Shown here in pieces: positions 52,981 to 64,000 of a stretch of DNA of 64,000 nucleotides. Within the stretch, counting starts at the first letter, position 1; the number at the start of each line of letters is the position of its first letter. The position numbers and the translations under genes are program-made. The notes under the pieces were generated by a model that saw only the letters and a list, made by a program, of their open reading frames with translations, was not told the origin of the DNA and made no database searches. The DNA is from an uncultured Planctomycetaceae bacterium (GTDB lineage: Bacteria; Planctomycetota; Planctomycetia; Planctomycetales; Planctomycetaceae): the NCBI GenBank assembly GCA_963813715.1, contig CAWFAK010000007.1, forward strand, positions 960,001 to 1,024,000, written 5' to 3'.

Positions 52981-55900
52981 TTATCGAGATCCGCCGCGCC
53001 TTTCGCCTGCGGCGGCGTTCCACTCGGCTTCGATTTCGTCCGGCTTGAGGGTCACGACGACGCCGCTCTCATCAATGCGTTGACCGCTCGTGGCCTTTGC
53101 GAGATGGATCAGTCGCTCACTCGGCGTGCCGTCGTCGAGCGTCCACAAACGAATCACGGCATCTGCGCTGACGGTGACAAGCTGATTTCCCTCGTCGCAG
53201 AAGCCCACAAAGATCACGCGATCGGTATGCTCAAGCAGCGGCGACACTGGCTCACCGGTCGTTGCATCCCACACACGGGCCGTCGTGTCGTTGCTTCCTG
53301 TCGCGAACAAGCTGCCGTCCCCCCGGATGGTGCAACACGTCGCGTCGGCTCGTTGCAGTGGCAGCGTCGCCAGCGGCTCCCCTGTCGGAATGTCCCAGGT
53401 GCCCGCTACGCCGCCTGCCGCGATCGCCGCAAGACGTGTTCCGTCGGCGCTGAATGCAACGCTCGAAGGATTGTTAAGGTTGGCTTGCGCGATGAACTTA
53501 CCGGTGGCCGCGTCGCAGACGATGGCTTGGGTTGACGGCCGAATCGCGAGTAGAAACCGACCATCAGGCGTCAGCCGACAATCGTTGAACTCGCCTTCGG
53601 TGTCGGTGGCGTGAAATTCCGAGAGCAGGTGGCCGGAAACTGCATCCCACAGACAGATTCGAAGACCGCCAGCCGTGTAGATTTTTTGGCCATCGGTGCT
53701 GAACATCGCTCGCTTCAGGCCCTCTCCGTGCCGCAACAGCAAGCGGCCCCGGCCGCCTTGAATCGAAACGACTTGCGCCGTGCCGTCGGAGTTCGCCGCG
53801 ACGAGCGTTGTTTCATCTGGAGAAAGGCTGACGTCGTTCGGCCGCCCGGTTCCGCATTTCACTTCCATTCGTCTGGGTTGCTTCGAGATGTCCCATACGT
53901 CCAGATTGGCATTGTCTCCCGCCAACACCAACGTCATGCCGTCGCGCGCGAATTTCGCGTGACGCGTGCCGGATGAGCCGGTCAGAGCGACCGAACTCAA
54001 ATTCGGCGCATTGAGGTCGCAAAGCTGCGCCGTTCCCTGAGCGCCCGCGAGCAAGAGCCAATGTCCATTTGGGCTGAGTTGCACAATCGATAAAGCGCCC
54101 AGGTCCGCGCAGCGATGCTCGACCTTGGAGGATCCGCCCAGGTTCCACTGGCGGAGAAAGCCGTCGAACCCGGCGGTCAAGACATGGTGCTCGTCATCGG
54201 TCAGCTCCGCCCAGGTGATTCCGTTGGCACAGTCAAACGGCGCTGCAAGCAAAGTCCCGGTCGTCAGATTCCAGACGCGCACGGTCTTGTCGAGGCTCCC
54301 GGTCACAAGCGTCTTCCCGTCTTTCGAGAACGACAGCGTCGAAACGCGTTGCTCATGATGGAGGTCACCCGGCAGGGCGCGCTGGGTTTGCAGATTCCAA
54401 ACGTGCACGCCGCCATCTCGGCAGCCAGCGGCTAACCGTGTGCCGTCACGACTGAATGCGATATGGAGGACGGAGCTGCTAGTGCGGAACTCGAATTTCT
54501 GGGCGCCGGACTTTACGTCCCACGCTCGGACAGCGCCGTCATTGCCGGCCGAATAAAGCAAGTCGCTCTTCGGCGCGAATCCGACACAATTGACCGGTTT
54601 TCCACTTTCGTGCTTTAGTGCCGCGACCTCGGTCGCGGTGACGACCGCCCAGACGTGTGTCGCGCCGTCGTGACAAGCAGTCGCAAGAAGCGAACCATCT
54701 GCGCTGAACGCCAGGTTCTGGACGTCGGATGAATGAGGAAGGATTGGCCCGCGCGGTCTTCCCGTGGAGACGTCCCAGAGCCGTACAGCGCCACCGTGCG
54801 TTGCCGATGCGAGGAGCCGGCTCGTCGGATCGAAGCACATCGCCAGAGGCGCCTTGTTGCTGTCAAGGATGAGCGGATTGCTCGCGAGCGAGGACGTCGG
54901 CCATACGCGGATGACCGCATCATTGCAGAACGTCGCAAGCAGATTTCCGTCGGGGCTGAATGCGCATTGCCAGAGGCCATCGGGATGTTGTAGGACGACT
55001 GGGGAACCAGCAGGGCTGGCGAAATCAAGCACCGTCGCCGCCTTGGAGGCAGTCGTGATCGCGAGCAGAGATCGGTTTGGACAACGCGCAACGGAATTAA
55101 TAGCTCTGCCCAGGAACCAAGTATGGGCCAGGCGCGATGTGTCCATCGCTGTGATCAATCGAACACGGTGGACGGACCTGGAACGCTCACTGGCCGGAAC
55201 TTGATTCAGTGCCGCAGCAAACCAGGGAAGCGCGTGCCTCGGATCGCCCCCTTCCAGGGAAGTGATTCCCTTTGAGACAAAAAGTCTTTCCCGGCTCTCG
55301 CGGTCAGCCTCTTCTGCTCGCCGCGCAGTTTCTGCTTGCTCGGCAAGCCGCTGGTTGGCATTTTCGACTCGACTCGTATAGACGGCGTGCGCAACCGGGA
55401 AGCTGAGCCCCAACGCCACGGCGACGGCAACCAAAATGGCTGTCTTTGGACGTCGTCGGGCCCAGCGACATCCTCGTGCAACCAGTGAGATCGGTCGTGC
55501 TTGGACTGGTAGTCCTTCCAGGAATCGCGTCAGGTCTTCCTCGAGCTCGCGCCGACGCGTAGCGGTCCCGAGGCAGCTTATGCATGCACATAAGGCAGAT
55601 TCTTGCCAGGTCCATCGGCACAACGCGATTCTCCACGCTTGGCGAACGTGGTTCTGCATGGATCACCTGATGCAGGACGCTTTGCACGTTGCCCCGAAAT
55701 GGTCGCTCACCTGTCAACAGCTCGTAGAGGACTACTCCCAGGCTGTAAACGTCGCTCCGCGCATCGACGCTTTTGCCCTCCGCTTGTTCGGGGCTCATGT
55801 AGGCCGGGGTCCCCAGAATCGTCCCGGCGACGGTGATCAACGCCTCCCCCTCGCGCCGGGCCAGGCCGAAATCCATCAAAAACGGCTCGCCGCGTTCGTC

Positions 55901-56820
55901 GAGCATAATGTTCGCCGGCTTGACGTCACGGTGAATCACACCGCGCTCATGCGCGTATTGCAGAGCATCGGCCAGGATACGCACAATTCTTGCAGCCTCC
56001 CGCGGCTCGAATTGGCGGGCAGCCAGGGTCTTGCTCAGCGTCTGACCGCGAACAAATTCCGACACGATGAAGGGCTGCTCGCGCGTCCCTCCGACTTCGT
56101 ACACCGAGACGATGTGCCCATGATGCAAGGCCGCCGCGCTTTGCGCCTCGCGAATGAATCGCTCCTGCTCCCTCTCGGATCCGAGGACGCCTTCTCGGGG
56201 CACTTTGATCGCGACGACTCGCCCAAGACCGGTGTCAATCGCGCGAAAAACAGTGCCGAAGCCCCCCTGCCCGACGGCATCGACCAATCGGAAGCGGCCC
56301 AACGTGCCGGCCGGGATGCGAGCCTCGCTCGGTGCGTCGCGACCGGAGACGGTCGCACCGGAAAAGCCCTTATCCGAAACGCCCGGCGCTGTCGAACGCG
56401 TGGCGCCGATGACAGACAAATCGGCGCCACTGGCGGCTGTTTCCAGCGCTGCCCTGCTCGAGCGCTCGCCCACGTCGCGAGGTTCAGAACCGCTCACCAA
56501 CTCAGCCGCGGCGTTGCTTACCGCCGACATGGGGCCGACCCGCCAGGCGCCTCGATGCGCAACAGCTGGAGGATGACCTGCTCGAATACTTGGAGCTCGG
56601 GAAAGTCGCGCAGGTAATCTTCAGTGCGCTGGGGATGACCGTCTCTCAGGCGGAAATCAAGGTCGATGACGACAAGCGCCTGTAACAAAGCACTGCGCCG
56701 ATGACCCGCTTGCTCGCAATAGTCGTCGATAGCCGGACACTCGCCGCGCCGCCAAGCGTCTTCGAATCGCTTGACAGCCTGGTCGATGTCAACCGCGGAG
56801 ATGGGTGCTTCGGATGACAT
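52981..56820 (-). CDS. Ser/Thr protein kinase with WD40 repeats (frameshifts ~56545, ~55550)
   Basis: RFEDAWRRG N-terminus; GQGGFG, HRDVKPAN, DFG and [14 protein letters not shown]40 array. Confidence 0.9.
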
Positions 56821-57410: not shown

Positions 57411-57573
57411 CAGGGGAAGCCCATCCGCGCGTCGTGCGCCGTACAGTCGCGGGGCTGTTAACAAGGAATCAGCAGCAACGGTTGATCAAGCGGTTTTCGC
57501 CGCATAGCGCGCTTCGCCCGGGACGGCAGCGCAAACCTCGCATGGCTGCCCTAGGCTCCTGGCGTGTCGAATC

Positions 57574-59645
57574 GTGGCCTTTCTGGTTTCTCAAAAACGC
57601 GGCGATCGCCTCGGGACGTCCCAAACCGGGCAACTGGCCGTCGAGCACATTCCTGGATTAACGAAGCTGTGGGCCGCGACCAGCGGCGCCCCCGAAATTC
57701 ATGTCGCGATCTTGGATGCGCCGGTCGATCGGGCCAATCCCTGCCTGGCAGCCGCGAGGATCGATCAAGCCTGGTTGGGAGAGCAGACGCACTGCTCTTC
57801 GCACGGAACCGAAGTCGCCAGCGTGATCTTCGGGCAGCACGACTCGGCCGTGCGGGGAATCGCGCCGGGCTGTCGCGGAATCAGCATTCCCATTTACAAG
57901 TGCGATCCCGTTCGCTCTCCCGCGACGAATCAAGTGCAACTGGCTCGCGCGATTCATGAAGCCCTGGCGGCCGGCGGCGCACGTCATCAACGTGAGCGCC
58001 GGACAGTTGGTTCCCTCTGGCATCGCGGAGCCCGAGTTAGCGGCAGCCGTCCGCGCCTGTGCTTCGGCCGGAGTTCTGATCATCGCCGCCGTCGGAAACG
58101 ACGGTTGCGACTGCCTGCATGTGCCGGCCGCACTCCCCTGTGTTCTGGCCGTCGGCGCCATGCGATGGGACGGCAGCCCGGTGCCGGGCAGCAACTGGGG
58201 ATCCATTTACCAAACGCAGGGAATTTTGGCCCCAGGTGAGAACATCGACGTCTGCGGTGCGAACGGACAGCCGATGTCGCGGACGGGATCGAGCTACGCG
58301 ACGGCCATCGTCGCCGGCGTGGCGGCCTTGCTGCTCAGCCGAGAACTCAAACTGGGGCGTTCTCTCCGACCACTTCTTGTTCGCAAGGCCCTGCTAAGCG
58401 CAGCCGACCGATTGGCTCGTGCATCCGCCGACGAAAGGCACCGTTTTCTCGCTGGTCGTTTAGATATTACGGCAACAACGATCTTCCTCGACACCTGGAG
58501 CAACACCATGTCCGATAGCATGAATCTCGACCTGCCCGGTGAAGGCATCTCCGACGGAGGCGCCCCGTGCGACGCCGTGCCCGTCAGTATCCAGCCCTCC
58601 GCCGAGCGAAACGTCGATCCTCCGCGGCTGACGCAGCCTGGCATCTTGCCGACGCAACCGGAACGCCAGGAACGACGCACGAACGCCGTCGAGCCCTCGG
58701 CATGCTCCAGCTGCCGCGGCGAACGTCAGTTGGTCTATGCCCTGGGACGATTGAACTACGACTTCGGCAGCGAGGCCGGCTTGGACGCATTTAAGCAGCG
58801 GATGCGCCATCTGCGACTTCCCGGATGCGATGATCCCAAAATCTTCTGGGAAAATGCGAACCCACTCGATGAACGGCAGTTGAAGATTTTCCTCGGCGCC
58901 ATTCCCGAACAGGAAGCAGATGCGTGGATCTCGGCCCTGCTTTGGACCTTGGAGGTCGGCGGATTGCCGCTCTACGTCATTCGGCCGGAAGGCCCACAAG
59001 CGTCGGTGGCCTACAGGAGCCTCAAGGATTATTACTTTGAGCAATTCCCAACGCACACGAAGCACGAAGAGGCGGAAAACAAGGGGGAACACCAGCACCA
59101 TCAGCAGGACCAACACCAGCAGCAAGCCCCACAAGAGTGCGCAATCGCCGAACAAGTTGGCGTTCCAGGTATCATCGCGGGCCAAGCAACGCTGCATAAC
59201 GGTCTGCGCGTGCCGGCGATCAACCCAGACCTACGGGCCCTCTGCAATTGGAATCGGCATTGTTTGGTCACACAAGTTTTGGGGGACGCACCGGATGCCG
59301 CGCTCAAAGAGTCGCTGGAGGAGTTCCTGGACCACCTCTACTTCGAGTTGCAGAATGCCGGCCTCACCTCGCGAGACCGATCCCTGAATTACGCGGCGAC
59401 CAACCTCGCCGAACCCAAGAAGATTTTCGTCAAAGAGCTCAAGAACAAACACTCACTGGATTCGATCGGCGCCGAGCGCAGCAAACTCTGTCGTCCCGGC
59501 TCCGATTGTTGGGACGTCACGCTGTCGTTCTTCGACCCGAAGAATCCGCTGCACACCGTGCGACTCGGTGCACCGTTACACCATCGATGTCAGCGAGGTG
59601 CTTCCCGTCACAGTCGGCGAGATCCGTTCCTGGAAGACTCGGTAA
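57574..59645 (+). CDS. PatA/PatG family cyanobactin-type S8 protease (PatA-type) with C-terminal PatG-domain; frameshifts ~57975 and ~59567
   Basis: ILDAPVD (Asp), SHGTEVASVIFGQHDS (His), AAVGNDGCDCLHVPAALP, SNWG...QGILAPG and TGSSYAT (Ser); QLVYALGRLNYDFGSEA, SLNYAATN, CRPGSDCWDVTLSFFDP and YTIDVSEVLPVTVGEIRSW. Start is approximate. Confidence 0.92.
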
Positions 59646-59726
59646 CGAAACTTGCAAACTGACGGCTGAGGTTGGGGCGTAGGCGACGCCCCATTGGCCG
59701 GTTTGGTCAGCGCGGCCGGCAACGGC

Positions 59727-61178
59727 CTACGGGAAGAGCTGCGCATACCGCTCGAGGCGATCCGAGCTCGCCAGGCGGCGGAAGATTTCGGGGAAAAGTG
59801 CCAGAGAAATCTGGCACTCCACCTCATCAATTCGCTCTAAGCCCGATCGGGCGAGACACGTGCCTCCGCAGAAGCTGCGCCAATCGCAGTTCTGGCAGGG
59901 ACTGAGACTGGCCGTCGAGCGGCCGCGGATCGTGTCGGCGATCGGGCTGTCGAGGGCGGCCGCGATTCCGTCGCGCTCCATGTGGCCCAACGAGAGGGTG
60001 CGGTCGCCGATGCAGTCGCACGACTCGATCGTCCCGTCGACGCTGATCGAAACGAGGTCCCGGGCCGCGCCGCAGCCATCGCGCAGACACATGCTCCGCC
60101 GATCGCCCGAGAGGACGTTGCGCAGATAGCGCAAAACCGGCGCGACGGTCATCTGGTCGAACTCGCCGGCCTCCACCGCGTCGAAGAGCTCGAAATACGA
60201 TTGGATGACGACGTCGGTGTCGGGAGCAAAATGGGGCATCTGTGTCGCGCGGCCGAGCGGCTGGAAGAGCGTTGCGTCCCAGTGCTTGATGCCGAGGTCG
60301 CGCATGTAGCGGGCCGTCTCGAGCAGTCGGGCGGCGTTCGTGGACGTGACCGTCGTCAGCACGGCGACTTTGGCCAACAGGCGAGGGTTCGAGCGCAGAG
60401 CTTTTTCGATCTCGTCGAACCGTCCCCGTCCCGAGTGATCGACGCGGTGCCGATCGTTGAGGGCGGCCGGTCCGTCGAGGGAAACGCCGATCGAGACCCG
60501 GTTCTCGAGCAGGAAGTCGACGGTTGCCGGCGAGAAATGGCGGCCGTTGGTCTGCACCGAGAAGCGGACCTCGCGTTCTGCCGCGCGGGCGGCTTCGCAC
60601 GCGAAGGGAACGAGCGCGCGGATCTGATCGATGGCCAGAAGCGGTTCGCCGCCATGAAACAAGATTTTGAGGACGGGGCCGGAGCGGGCCAGCGAATCGA
60701 CGATCGCCTTTCGGGCGACCTCGTCCGACAGGCGACGTGAATAGTTCTCGGCCCGAAAGTCGTAGCAATAGTCGCAGGCCAGATCGCAGAAACCGACGAG
60801 CTTGAGGATCAGCGTGTTGAGCGAGCCCGATCCCGCGTTCAATGAACCCGGACGCACACCTCCCTGGCAGCCGGCTCCCTATTGGTCCCGAATCAATCCC
60901 GAGTTTCGCAGGGGATCGAAGAGCGGCGATCGCTCGAGCGCAGGGTCCTCGAAGCCGCTCGACTCGCAGGCGTCGAGAAATTCTTGGACCGCGCCCACTG
61001 ACTGGACCCTGACCATCACCCAGCTGCCGCTGGGCGGGTGGAGCAAGAGGGCAAGCTCGTCGCTCAGGCGGCGCTCGCGAATCGGGCGCAGAACGCGATA
61101 TCGCGGCGGGGCACCCAGCACGGGAAGCGGCGACAACGAGGGCATCGCAATCGTCCCCAGTCCTGACTCAGTGCTCAT
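59727..61178 (-). CDS. Radical SAM/SPASM peptide maturase with N-terminal RRE/PqqD-like domain; in-frame TAG at 60879-60881
   Basis: CDLACDYC, FHGGEPLL, QTNG and GVSLDGP; SPASM Cys pattern MCLRDGCG...SCDC...CQNCDWRSFCGGTC...C. The upstream 99-aa segment (LLLHPPSGSWVMV...LRNSGLI) is in the same frame. Confidence 0.88.
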
Positions 61179-61450
61179 TCCTGGTCGACGTTCTTCATCC
61201 AAATCGACATGAAAGAGAGCCCTTGCGGAACCGCGCTGGCTTTCACAATGGCGATTTCCTTGACGTCAAACTTAGACGTCGCGGCAGAAGTTAACCGGCC
61301 GATTCCGTGGAGCACATCGCGACTCACATCGTCGGCGATCGCGTCCGGGACGATGATCGTGACATTGTCGTCTGTGCTCGGACTCACGGTGTCGAGCGAT
61401 GTCTTCTTGTCTTTTTTCCCCTTTTTGCCCTTCTTTTTCTTTTTCGACAT
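61175..61450 (-). CDS. 91-aa peptide, candidate radical SAM substrate
   Basis: Lys-rich N-terminus; C-terminal GLSFMSIWMKNVDQE; the stop overlaps the maturase ATG (ATGA). Confidence 0.7.
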   Translation of the reverse strand: MSKKKKKGKKGKKDKKTSLDTVSPSTDDNVTIIVPDAIADDVSRDVLHGIGRLTSAATSKFDVKEIAIVKASAVPQGLSFMSIWMKNVDQE

Positions 61451-61563
61451 GCGAGGCCCTTTCCCGGTTGTGGAGCCTGGTCGTTGAACCTGGTTGCGGA
61501 CTCTGGTTGTCGGACCTCCGTTGTCGTGTTCTCTCCATTAAACGCGAGTTGCCTGCCCCGATG

Positions 61564-63865
61564 CTAAGGGGATTTTGCGGCGGATGCCAGCATTGTTTTG
61601 GCCTCATTGTCGAGGCCGGTCAGCTGGCCCGGGGTGAGATGCTCCTTTTGTTTCCAGGCTTCGGCCTTCCGATAGAACTCTTCGGCCCGCGGTTTGTCGC
61701 CGAGCTTCCACCAGGCCATGGCCGCGTAGTACCAATCGAAGCCGTCGCCGCCATCCCGCAGGATCATCGACTCGTCGAGCGAAGCGACGGCCGACCGAAA
61801 ATCGCCCGCCCGGTATTGGGCGACACCCAACGTGTTCCAGTAATTGGCATTTCGCGGCGACATGTCGACCGCCTTGTGCGCGAGGGCGATCGCTTTTTCC
61901 GGATTCCGGATCTTCGGATCGCGATTGTTCGCGAAGACCCAGGCCATCCAGGCGTGCGGATCGGGGTTGGTCGGATCGACCTCGGCGGCGCGCTGGAGCC
62001 ATTCCAGCTCGTGTGGAACGTCGGACCTGAGTTCGTACTTCGTGCCGCACTCGGTGCAATAAAGCGAGAGTTCGCGCTTGTATTGAGAGTTTTCGGGATG
62101 CCGCTCGACGAGGCGTTTGCTGATTTCGATCGACTTGCCGATCGAGCGGAGCGAGGCTTCGATGTCGCTGAGGCGCGGACTCGGCGCCGGACACGTAGTA
62201 GTGAAGGCCGGCAAGATCGTGCGAAAAACCGGCGACGTCGGGATATTGGTCAGCCAAATCCTGCCAGACGTCGCGACTACGCTGCAGAAGCTCCACTCCG
62301 TCGCTGCGGATTCGACGGGCCGCTCGATTTGCGGTTCACATAGTGCGGAAAGCGAAACAGCCCTCCCCTCAGAGGTTCGAGGTCCGCCAGGCCGGCCCCT
62401 TGTTGCCGCAATTTCTCCAGACCGGCGAGGCCCTGTTCCATCTCGGTCTGGGCCTCGTCGGGCTCGCCGTTGACGAGATGTAACTGCCAAAGACGAAAGT
62501 GCGTGGCCGCGACCTCGGCCGCCAGAGCCGGACTCTCGGCGTTTTGAGCGAGAAACTTCTGATAATAGTCCATCGCCGTCGAGACCAGCTCGCGGCGTAG
62601 CGGCTGCACTCCCGGCTCGTCGAGCAAGGGATTGTCGCTGATCGCGGCGAAGTCATCGACCGCGTGTCGGGCCGCCTGCAGGTTAGTCTCGGCATCGACG
62701 CGAGCGTCGCGCTCGCGATCGCGGGCAGCGGCGATCGTCAACGCATCGTACGTCATCACAATGGCAAGCGAGATCGGAACGAACAGAGCCAGGCCGATCG
62801 CCGCAGCCTGCCATGGCTTCCGCTGACACCAGCGCCAAATCCGCTTGGGCCGGCTGGTCCTGCGAGCATAGATCGGTTCCAACCGCAGCCAGCGGTGCAA
62901 ATCATCGGCGAATTCCTGCGCCGTCTGGTAACGGCGAGAGCGTCCTTGTCGATCGCCTTGAGGCAGATCGTCTCCAGGTCGGCCGGGATATAGTTGTTGA
63001 AACTGCGGGGGTTGCGGGGCTCTTCGTTCATCACCCGCTGGATCAGCATCTGGATGTTGCCCCCGAACGGCCGCTCCCCCGTCAACAGCTCAAAGAGCAC
63101 GATGCCCAAGCTGTAGATGTCGCTGCGGCGATCGAGTTCGTGCGAGTTGCCGGCCGCCTGCTCGGGGCTCATGTAGGCCGGCGTTCCGAGAATCTGCCCC
63201 TCCATCGTCAGCGTGACATCGCACTCGGGCCGCAGCGCCAGTCCAAAATCCAGAATTCGCGGCCGGGCGTTCTGGTCAATGATGATGTTCGACGGCTTGA
63301 TGTCGCGATGGACGACGTTGCGCTGGTGGGCGTACTCGAGTCCCTCGGCAACCGCCGCCACAAGCAGCGCCGACTCGCGAAGGGCAAAACGCCGCTGGTT
63401 CATCAGCTTGTCGAGCGATGACCCCAGGACCAGTTCGCTCACAATGCAGGTGCGACCGTCGACCTTGCAAAGATCGAAGATCGGCACGATGGCCGGATGG
63501 TGCAGCTGGGAGGCGCTGCGTGCTTCGCGGGTGAATCGTTGGAATTCGGTCGCGGTCTCCGGGAGCTCTCGTCGCGGCACTTTGAGGGCCACCATCCGGT
63601 CGAGATCCGGGTCGTAGGCCGCGAATACGGTGCCGAAGCCGCCTCGCCCGATCCGATTGATAACCCGAAATCGCCCGACGTTTTTCAGCTCGTCACCAGG
63701 CGACGCGGGCCCTGCGAACTCGGCTGGAACCGGGCCGGTTGGGGCGGTCACATCCTGCTGGAATGCGATGGTCAGGTCGCACTTGGGACAGCGGCTGACC
63801 TGGCCGAATCCCTCCGACGGGATCTCCAGGGGGCTCAAGCACCTGGGGCAGAGCGCTTGCATCAA
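61564..63865 (-). CDS. Ser/Thr protein kinase with N-terminal Zn-ribbon and C-terminal TPRs (several frameshifts at 62.2-62.95 kb)
   Basis: CPRC...[21 protein letters not shown] and [28 protein letters not shown] tail. Confidence 0.88.
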
Positions 63866-64000
63866 TCTCTCCAGCGGTGAATGGTCGCGCCGACCAAAAG
63901 GCGACGTTCACAATCAGGAGCGAGCGAGATGGTTTTTGCTGCCAGCGGAATGCGTTCGCGTGGCCGTCGAATGCCGCTCTGAGGATTGACGTGCCGGGAG

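Follow-up and report, generated by a model that had tools for sequence, protein, structure and literature searches.

The 64,000-nucleotide stretch analysed here (contig CAWFAK010000007.1 of an uncultured Planctomycetaceae bacterium; hereafter the window) encodes on its minus strand a Lys-rich protein of 91 residues, followed without a gap by a radical S-adenosylmethionine (rSAM) enzyme of the SPASM subfamily. We propose that the small protein is probably the precursor of a peptide made on the ribosome and modified after translation (RiPP), in which the adjoining enzyme, bearing an N-terminal domain that resembles a RiPP recognition element (RRE), would cross-link a Trp to a Lys. To judge from the sequences, the pair most likely belongs, as a new family, among the radical-SAM cross-linked peptides, a kind already known. 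The genes occupy the interval 59727..63865 in the order Ser/Thr kinase, 91-residue open reading frame (ORF), 99-residue ORF and rSAM/SPASM ORF; individual coordinates are collected in Table 1. Throughout, P0002 is the 91-residue peptide, P0003 the rSAM/SPASM core and G000 the genome from which the window was taken; other genomes and loci carry G and L numbers where they need to be told apart.

The 91-residue ORF is real: its homologues, at 23-99% identity, retain both the frame and the motif, which is more than chance would produce. The product consists of a Lys-rich head, a predicted strand-helix-helix-strand unit (residues 29-70), a variable linker, the sequence W-M-K and five further residues. 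It contains no Cys, and its single Trp, W84, lies in the tail SFMSIWMKNVDQE. An initial annotation, made from the letters of the DNA, had described a poly-Lys head, the lack of Cys and a sole Trp in the tail, and translation of the ORF bears out all three. The folded-looking middle that it also noted corresponds to residues 29-70, which AlphaFold2 (AF2), supplied with an alignment of 50 sequences, models with pLDDT 86-89 as the strand-helix-helix-strand unit; scores are low for the head and for the last part of the tail. Likewise, the peptide's stop codon TGA (61175-61177) and the ATG at 61176-61178 form the annotated ATGA overlap that couples the peptide to its maturase, with the refinement that this ATG opens the 99-residue N-terminal domain of the maturase, not the core carrying the CX3CX2C motif. 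A scan of 59500-61800 for promoters and terminators found none on the minus strand.

Which residues of this peptide are conserved? In an alignment of 42 family members only two positions are invariant, the Pro of a VPD sequence in the leader and the Trp of the tail, and the Lys two residues after that Trp is at least 90% conserved, in agreement with the W-x-K tail picked out by the initial annotation. (Left out of this alignment were two near-duplicates of P0002, four sequences of the c-type described below, the long P0024 and the distant P0052.) The flanks of the Trp/Lys site vary across the 42 homologues, and the segment that links the fold to W-x-K differs freely in length and sequence. Among 50 family sequences, W-x-K falls within the last 25 residues of 41 and at position −37 of one longer protein; the x stands for Q, D, H, M, P, A, E, N or Y. 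The 85 distinct sequences of the family comprise 57 with a W-x-K tail, 2 with W-x-R and 4 with Trp and another residue at +2 (Thr, Asn or Val in three, and W-R-A in one); the remainder are 9 c-type sequences, which have no tail Trp, 11 e-type sequences, which have no Trp and carry a Cys among their last four residues, and 2 fragments. For this tally, c-type sequences with an internal W-A-x were moved out of the classes assigned by the raw script. A Cys occurs within the last four residues of 34 of the 85 members, and this C-terminal Cys may be a second modification site.

The initial annotation had envisaged a triceptide-like precursor with up to two rings, one at W-x-K and one at F-x-S. The W-x-K part is supported by the conserved site, the lack of a known family and the rSAM/SPASM maturase; the second ring is not supported. 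F-M-S is present in 3 of the 50 sequences, namely the window peptide and its two closest relatives, and the next relatives have F-P-A there; two other F-x-S matches (FKS) lie elsewhere in the sequence, not at the tail site. We therefore rejected F-x-S as a second ring.

The motif and the enzyme go together. The enzyme is encoded in 8 of the 12 genomes of the genus, at nine loci that form two clades about 59% identical; 400 genomes from elsewhere in the phylum contained none (E<=1e-40). Directly upstream of it, at nine of nine loci, is a small ORF ending in W-x-K plus one to six residues. The motif is WMK in G000 and G002, WPK in G010, WDK in G001 and WQK in G009; the ~59% clade contributes four diverged "d-type" peptides, which end in W-D-K-x-C and were missed by the P0002 search. 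A metagenome scan by generic cluster motifs kept 80 loci, with close relatives at L015, L016 and L050; the upstream region is present in L016 alone, where two tandem family peptides, both WHK, precede the enzyme, and the other 77 loci (25-37% identity) were not used. When the peptides upstream of the closest enzyme homologues are aligned, a check that the initial annotation had suggested, W-x-K is found in 10 of the 10 peptides of known context directly upstream of the enzyme (the nine genus loci and L016). A tail W-x-K is found in 0 of 5 paralogues of known context outside an enzyme cluster (c-type in G000, G002 and G010; e-type in G004 and G005), and the last two genomes lack the enzyme at E<=1e-30. 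G010 has a second peptide, with W-H-K, which belongs to the same cluster at a distance of 2.9 kb from the enzyme. Seven more peptide/enzyme pairs occur in metagenomes, where the longest contigs for the two are of equal size; presumably each pair shares a contig. The spacing is close throughout: the ATGA overlap recurs in G000, G002 and G009, the gap is 18 nt in L016, and 6 nt separate the two genes at those three loci of the ~59% clade where the enzyme start is clear. This split of motif and enzyme is perfect but, because the loci are relatives of one another, it is suggestive and does not amount to a statistical test. The motif by which triceptides are recognised, an aromatic-X-X sequence beside an rSAM enzyme, is present in all ten cases as W-x-K.

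P0003 carries the CX3CX2C motif as CDLACDYC and matches PF04055 (E 1.4e-14, 55.1 bits against a cut-off of 29.5), which places it in the Radical SAM superfamily. Similarly, its CX2CX5CX3C motif, CQNCDWRSFCGGTC, together with PF13186 (24.4 bits against a cut-off of 21.5), places it in the SPASM subfamily, and the SPASM Cys columns are invariant across 36 homologues. The annotation of this neighbour as a peptide maturase of the rSAM/SPASM type is upheld by Pfam domains and by profile and fold matches. The TAG that ends the 99-residue ORF is in frame with the rSAM/SPASM ORF, and the whole reads as one match with a single TAG. In G009 the same protein is a single ORF of 473 residues, also with the ATGA overlap; in G010 and G001 the enzyme is one open frame, and in G002 the TAG site reads through. 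Because relatives carry both parts in one frame, we take the 99-residue ORF to be the N-terminal domain of the maturase. Searched alone against Pfam and NCBIfam, this ORF gave no match at E<=0.1. A profile built from 36 enzyme sequences matches CteB (E 3.5e-41), the triceptide synthase ChlB (3.3e-35) and the anaerobic sulfatase maturase anSME (4k37; 5.4e-34), and its positions 34-276 align to CteB 17-271, including the N-terminal part of CteB, which we take to be its peptide-binding RRE. The AF2 model of the enzyme (overall pLDDT 85.9) has an N-terminal domain of four short strands at residues 20-50 and helices at 51-86 (pLDDT 85-94), a disordered linker (94-106) and then the barrel; Foldseek ranks CteB first (473 columns), followed by anSME, ChlB, TigE, SkfB, SuiB and PqqE. 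By these models the N-terminal domain appears RRE-like, and we propose that it binds the leader.

We scanned the window core and two full-length orthologues against NCBIfam. The core matched 78 families and the orthologues 62 and 63, none of them at its cut-off. The best scores belong to PapB (149-152 bits of the 340 required), anSME TIGR03942 (117.9-139 of 349.45), DynA (119.5-129.3 of 450) and QhpD (115-125 of 453), and the curated cyclophane synthases (XyeB, FxsB, GrrM/OscB, YhhB, AmcB, DarE and DynA) all fall short of their cut-offs, DynA being the best among them. On the basis of the NCBIfam cut-offs, the enzyme is a new clade of peptide-modifying rSAM/SPASM proteins, one that may already be a node in published networks. 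Its homologues at 38-51% identity include proteins of Sphingomonas and Streptomyces, and a FastTree phylogeny of 70 enzymes, offered as an illustration for which support values were not considered, shows the a/b-type and d-type enzymes as sister clades. We note that in G001 (L012 2450..2540, minus strand) and G010 (L010 9225..9310, minus strand) no ATG, GTG or TTG precedes the first ~25 conserved residues of the enzyme, and that in G001 the enzyme frame continues the peptide frame past a single TAA; a non-canonical start, read-through or an assembly error could be responsible.

We propose the following sequence of events, modelled on reported enzymes for W-x-K/R or aromatic-X-X motifs (PMC11851443, PMC11499958 and PMC9055067). 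The precursor would have a long leader, in which the small predicted fold follows the Lys-rich head, and would end in a short C-terminal core, and the enzyme would be translated right after it. The RRE-like domain would bind the conserved leader, and the 5'-deoxyadenosyl radical generated by the rSAM core would abstract a side-chain hydrogen of the Lys, at the beta carbon if triceptides and darobactin are a guide. The Lys radical would then add to the indole of the Trp two residues upstream, and the SPASM clusters would accept an electron, yielding a three-residue Trp-x-Lys cyclophane with a mass loss of 2 Da. Finally, in the window's genome, the divergent PatA/PatG-like protease encoded nearby may cut off the leader. 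The analysis shows the order and coupling of the genes, the domains of the enzyme, the conservation of the motif and its occurrence together with the enzyme; how the leader is bound and removed, which atoms are joined and how the product is exported are inferred.

How widespread is the peptide? Relatives of P0002 occur in 4 of the 11 other genomes of the genus and in 0 of 49 genomes outside it (both at E<=1e-3), and the family profile found no match in 400 further genomes of the phylum. In a collection of 5.8 billion proteins the profile found 49 proteins, all unnamed or "hypothetical"; those of known source come from Planctomycetaceae metagenome-assembled genomes. A search without a word index returned 46 matches, of which 13 were known already, 5 were long multi-domain proteins that we left out and 28 were new family members. 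Overall, soil metagenomes and four further genomes of the genus contain relatives. A Pfam scan of 50 members yielded nothing beyond noise, an NCBIfam scan of five family peptides matched no family and a search of the ESM Atlas gave no usable match. The initial annotation was right, on the Pfam and NCBIfam scans, that the peptide fits no recognised precursor family.

The division of the enzyme gene between two ORFs in the window is probably an assembly error. We compared the window over 57500-63900 with Logan contigs from four sequencing runs, two of soil DNA and two of RNA libraries. A 1252-base contig of run X1 differs from the window by nine letters and six gaps. The X1 and X2 contigs have one additional base after each of 60879, 60880 and 60881, so that the TAG becomes, as far as the tabulated differences show, two sense codons, and there are more small insertions in the contigs at 60856-60858. 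Likewise, the contigs are one base shorter at 57976, where the frame of the protease changes (covering contigs from three of the four runs), and at 59563, and the frame changes of the kinase match contig indels of one base fewer at 62169/62175 and at 62294 and one more at 62942. Such an indel accompanies each change of frame in the genes of the protease, the enzyme and the kinase. We attribute the enzyme split to the assembly because contigs from nearly identical strains interrupt the TAG and are free of the frameshifts, and because the relatives have a single ORF; all three genes are probably intact in nature. The completeness of G000, 82.6% in 18 contigs, fits indel errors. The window probably stems from an error-prone long-read assembly, and its other split genes therefore call for caution. 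In all, the indels relative to these Illumina-derived contigs lie at 57976, 59563, 60856-60881, 61556, 62169-62294 and 62942. Contigs of the two RNA-library runs cover the peptide and enzyme genes, which we do not take as transcription. Over 63064..63491, in the region of the kinase catalytic domain, the depth of contigs increases by as much as 30-fold or more, and loose ends and short joints are numerous, likely because conserved kinase motifs attract contigs from other organisms.

Table 1. Features of the window discussed in the text (positions count from the first letter of the window).
Feature	Position	Strand	Basis or remark
Precursor-like small protein, 91 residues	61175..61450	-	ORF, homologues, AF2; no family match
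W84-M85-K86 codons, conserved W-x-K site, proposed cross-link site	61193..61201	-	Sequence and conservation
Maturase N-terminal RRE-like domain, 99 residues	60879..61178	-	Starts in the ATGA overlap, ends at an in-frame TAG (60879-60881)
Radical SAM/SPASM catalytic core, 376 residues	59727..60857	-	CDLACDYC, C-terminal CX2CX5CX3C, Pfam
Ser/Thr kinase: N-terminus resembling a zinc ribbon, a single hydrophobic segment that likely spans the membrane, TPR repeats at the C-terminus	61564..63865	-	Three frames in the window
Subtilisin-like protease of the PatA/PatG family, divergently oriented, with PatG_D and PatG_C domains	57574..59662	+	Two frames in the window

Several neighbouring genes bear on what the cluster may do. 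The two frameshift-split pieces of the protease, scored separately against TIGR03895, reach 401.1 bits (the 568-residue piece) and 48.7 bits, against a cut-off of 421.05, and all three of its Pfam domains (S8, PatG_D and PatG_C) are present. A TIGR03895 protease is found in three of the five peptide-bearing genomes (G000, G001 and G002), and a protease of the PatA/PatG family stands beside the enzyme in G000 and G002. It is a candidate leader protease that is not conserved with the system; as an obligate part it was rejected, since TIGR03895 was not found in G009 or G010. An LpxL-like acyltransferase (PF03279, E 3.4e-9) follows the enzyme in four d-type loci and stands directly after the peptide in two e-type loci; none was found in G000, G002, G001 or G010. 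The d-type loci (L107, L108, L109 and L111) encode in turn the W-D-K-x-Cys peptide, the rSAM enzyme, the acyltransferase and a small membrane protein. The e-type loci of G004 and G005 (L113 3659..3898, minus strand, and L115 2945..3190, plus strand) encode the kinase, a Trp-less peptide ending in Cys and the acyltransferase, with no rSAM enzyme.

In G000 a c-type paralogue is encoded divergently from the kinase gene, 314 bases past the end of the window (L002 1501..1725, plus strand; G000:C7:1024314-1024529). It has a Lys-rich head, the VPD strand and an internal W-A-K-S-F-G-V, and is without the W-x-K tail; the same divergent arrangement is seen in G010 (L010 7609..7812) and in G002. Downstream of the second kinase-peptide pair of G010 lie two large GTPase-like genes (L010 490..4323, minus strand; MMR_HSR1/dynamin-N). 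Within the window itself, a second Ser/Thr kinase ORF (55304..56530, minus strand) overlaps a WD40-repeat ORF (52981..55659), and the interval 52981..56530 is probably a single kinase-WD40 gene on the minus strand, split by a frameshift.

What weighs against a cross-linked precursor? The support comes entirely from sequence, and the chemistry is deduced. All of the genomic context except L016 comes from one genus, in which the loci are kin, not independent cases. The best NCBIfam scores of the enzyme are spread over PapB, a thioether enzyme, anSME, DynA and QhpD, all below cut-off; since no NCBIfam cut-off was reached, similarity does not single out cyclophane formation, and thioether formation is excluded here on the sole ground that P0002 has no Cys. 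The supposed leader is predicted by AF2 to fold, no transporter was seen in the cluster, and searches of G009 (98% complete) and G010 (96%) did not turn up the protease. The TAG in the window's own enzyme gene, if real, would leave the enzyme split here. Finally, there are Trp-less family members that have no enzyme and still stand beside the kinase, and the small protein must therefore have a role independent of the cross-link. Even so, we consider that a Trp-Lys cross-linked precursor probably gives the best account of the locus, and we have weighed it against the following alternatives. One of them strikes us as very improbable: the enzyme would have a housekeeping function, as an anaerobic sulfatase maturase or some other rSAM/SPASM protein, and the ORF beside it would be unrelated and not its substrate. 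anSME is among the best matches (TIGR03942 at 123.7-139 bits; 4k37), but an assignment to the anaerobic sulfatase maturases was rejected on scores of 123.7, 139 and 117.9 bits against the cut-off of 349.45, anSME aligns from profile position 115 and leaves the RRE-like domain uncovered, the enzyme and a W-x-K peptide co-occur in 10 of 10 cases, and both are confined to the same genus among the genomes searched, each with 0 of 400 elsewhere in the phylum. DarE is itself, by full-length similarity, most like anSME according to the portions of PMC10288494 that treat it, and the anSME-like pattern of the present enzyme is therefore not evidence against cyclophane formation. An unlikely variant, but one to be taken more seriously, keeps precursor and enzyme and has them carry out another chemistry at W-x-K than a simple ring from Trp to the Lys beta carbon, such as the tryglysin-type double Trp-Lys link, attachment at another Lys carbon, ether formation or hydroxylation of the DarE type, or epimerisation. 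Reported W-x-K/R enzymes join differing atoms, DarE also makes ether links (as described in part of PMC9055067), the present enzyme lies outside every curated family, and three peptides have Thr, Asn or Val at +2 and one W-R-A. Set against this, the high conservation of Lys at +2 and its replacement by Arg in two sequences point to a role for a long aliphatic side chain, and a Trp-Trp ether is impossible in most members, as they have only one tail Trp.

The kinase invites a different account, which we regard as improbable, though less so than the others: the small folded protein would be a substrate, adaptor or ligand of the kinase, and the rSAM enzyme would decorate its tail with no removal of a leader and no release of a free peptide. 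The kinase lies directly upstream of the peptide at every locus examined. A kinase of this type is directly upstream of a family member at 11 of the 12 strong kinase loci in the genus, and likewise at a weaker, frameshifted locus in G005; its C-terminal domain is single-copy in G000, and G010 has two kinase-peptide pairs and one enzyme. Also in favour of this account are the enzyme-less family members, the confidently predicted fold of residues 29-70, the variable occurrence of the protease and the lack of a visible transporter. However, the synteny is confined to one genus and possibly inherited, RRE-bearing rSAM/SPASM enzymes of this fold (CteB, SuiB and TigE) act on peptide precursors, the stretch between the fold and W-x-K is as freely variable as RiPP cores and linkers are, and the protease adjoins the enzyme in two genomes. 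The kinase synteny, the acyltransferase loci and the predicted fold lead us to suggest that the small protein may be a kinase partner whose tail is decorated in different ways. Extending this idea, it is conceivable, if doubtful, that the conserved unit is not enzyme plus peptide but the membrane Ser/Thr kinase with its TPR domain, lying beyond the single hydrophobic segment, plus the small Lys-rich protein, and that add-on enzymes diversify the tail of the latter. The tail types would then be W-x-K, served by the rSAM enzyme, as in the window; W-D-K-x-Cys, where the LpxL-like acyltransferase joins the rSAM enzyme; a tail that has no Trp and ends in Cys, accompanied only by the acyltransferase; and the tail-less paralogue divergent from the kinase.

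If the cross-link is real, the radical-SAM cyclophane peptides gain a precursor family and an enzyme clade, both of them new, with uncultured soil Planctomycetaceae as their source; a literature search, in which three general surveys came up, found no rSAM-modified peptide from Planctomycetota. The family also offers a natural specificity series, with at least nine middle residues in W-x-K and with Arg able to replace Lys. The constant pairing with a TPR kinase and the existence of paralogues without Trp and enzyme hint at a signalling or regulatory rather than an antibiotic role for the modified tail, which, if true, would be unusual for this peptide class. Were the kinase and the small protein indeed the conserved unit, the cluster would be a planctomycete peptide-signal or kinase-partner system, with the cyclophane as one among several alternative tags that the cognate kinase reads or that control it.

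Among the closest known systems are the triceptides. They are defined by an aromatic-to-C-beta link on aromatic-X-X motifs, and HtkB joins His to the Lys C-beta on H-T-K (both as given in sections of PMC11499958). Like the products of XyeB, YhhB, HtkB and ChlB, the peptide described here pairs such a motif, W-x-K, with an rSAM/SPASM enzyme, and ChlB is among the best matches of that enzyme. In contrast to triceptides, the enzyme scores under the cut-offs of FxsB (104.8-108 of 370), YhhB (99.8-106 of 445), AmcB (90-95 of 425), GrrM (61-71 of 310) and XyeB (60-62 of 450); there is one motif per precursor, where repeats are common in triceptides; the leader is long, Lys-rich and predicted to fold; and a kinase gene is always adjacent.

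Darobactin and dynobactin share with the proposed product an rSAM/SPASM-made Trp-Lys C-C link near the C-terminus of the precursor, in darobactin formed by DarE (as described in parts of PMC9055067 and PMC10288494), and DynA is one of the four best NCBIfam matches of the enzyme. However, DynA too stays far under its cut-off of 450, DarE appears among the 25 best matches for the ~59%-clade enzyme only, with a score of 70.3 where 650 is required, a second Trp that could form an ether bridge is missing from the window peptide, and no DarBCD-type transporter was seen. Tryglysin (WGK, made by WgkB) and the product of WprB (WPR) are comparable in the residues joined: excerpts of PMC11851443 describe both enzymes as rSAM proteins that cross-link Trp to Lys or Arg in W-x-K/R, with a need for an RRE, and the WprB precursors as having a "single WxR/K motif", and the present family has two W-x-R members. 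The same excerpts set WgkB and WprB apart, in that they come from streptococci, enterobacteria, firmicutes and archaea and use a separate RRE protein, WprC, and in that WprB is without Aux I cysteines, whereas the enzyme here has the full SPASM motif; moreover, Gly is never the middle residue in our 50 sequences. This comparison with WgkB and WprB is one of descriptions, not of enzyme sequences.

Finally, CteB, the SCIFF thioether maturase, forms thioethers to Cys, which the window peptide does not contain; its identity to the enzyme is 19% in the fold alignment, and the SCIFF model gives 97.6-100.6 of 425. Its architecture, however, is the same: an N-terminal RRE (here RRE-like and predicted), an rSAM barrel and a SPASM domain make up both enzymes, and CteB is the best match by sequence as well as by fold, in a fold list that also includes SuiB, the enzyme of the Lys-Trp link in streptide.

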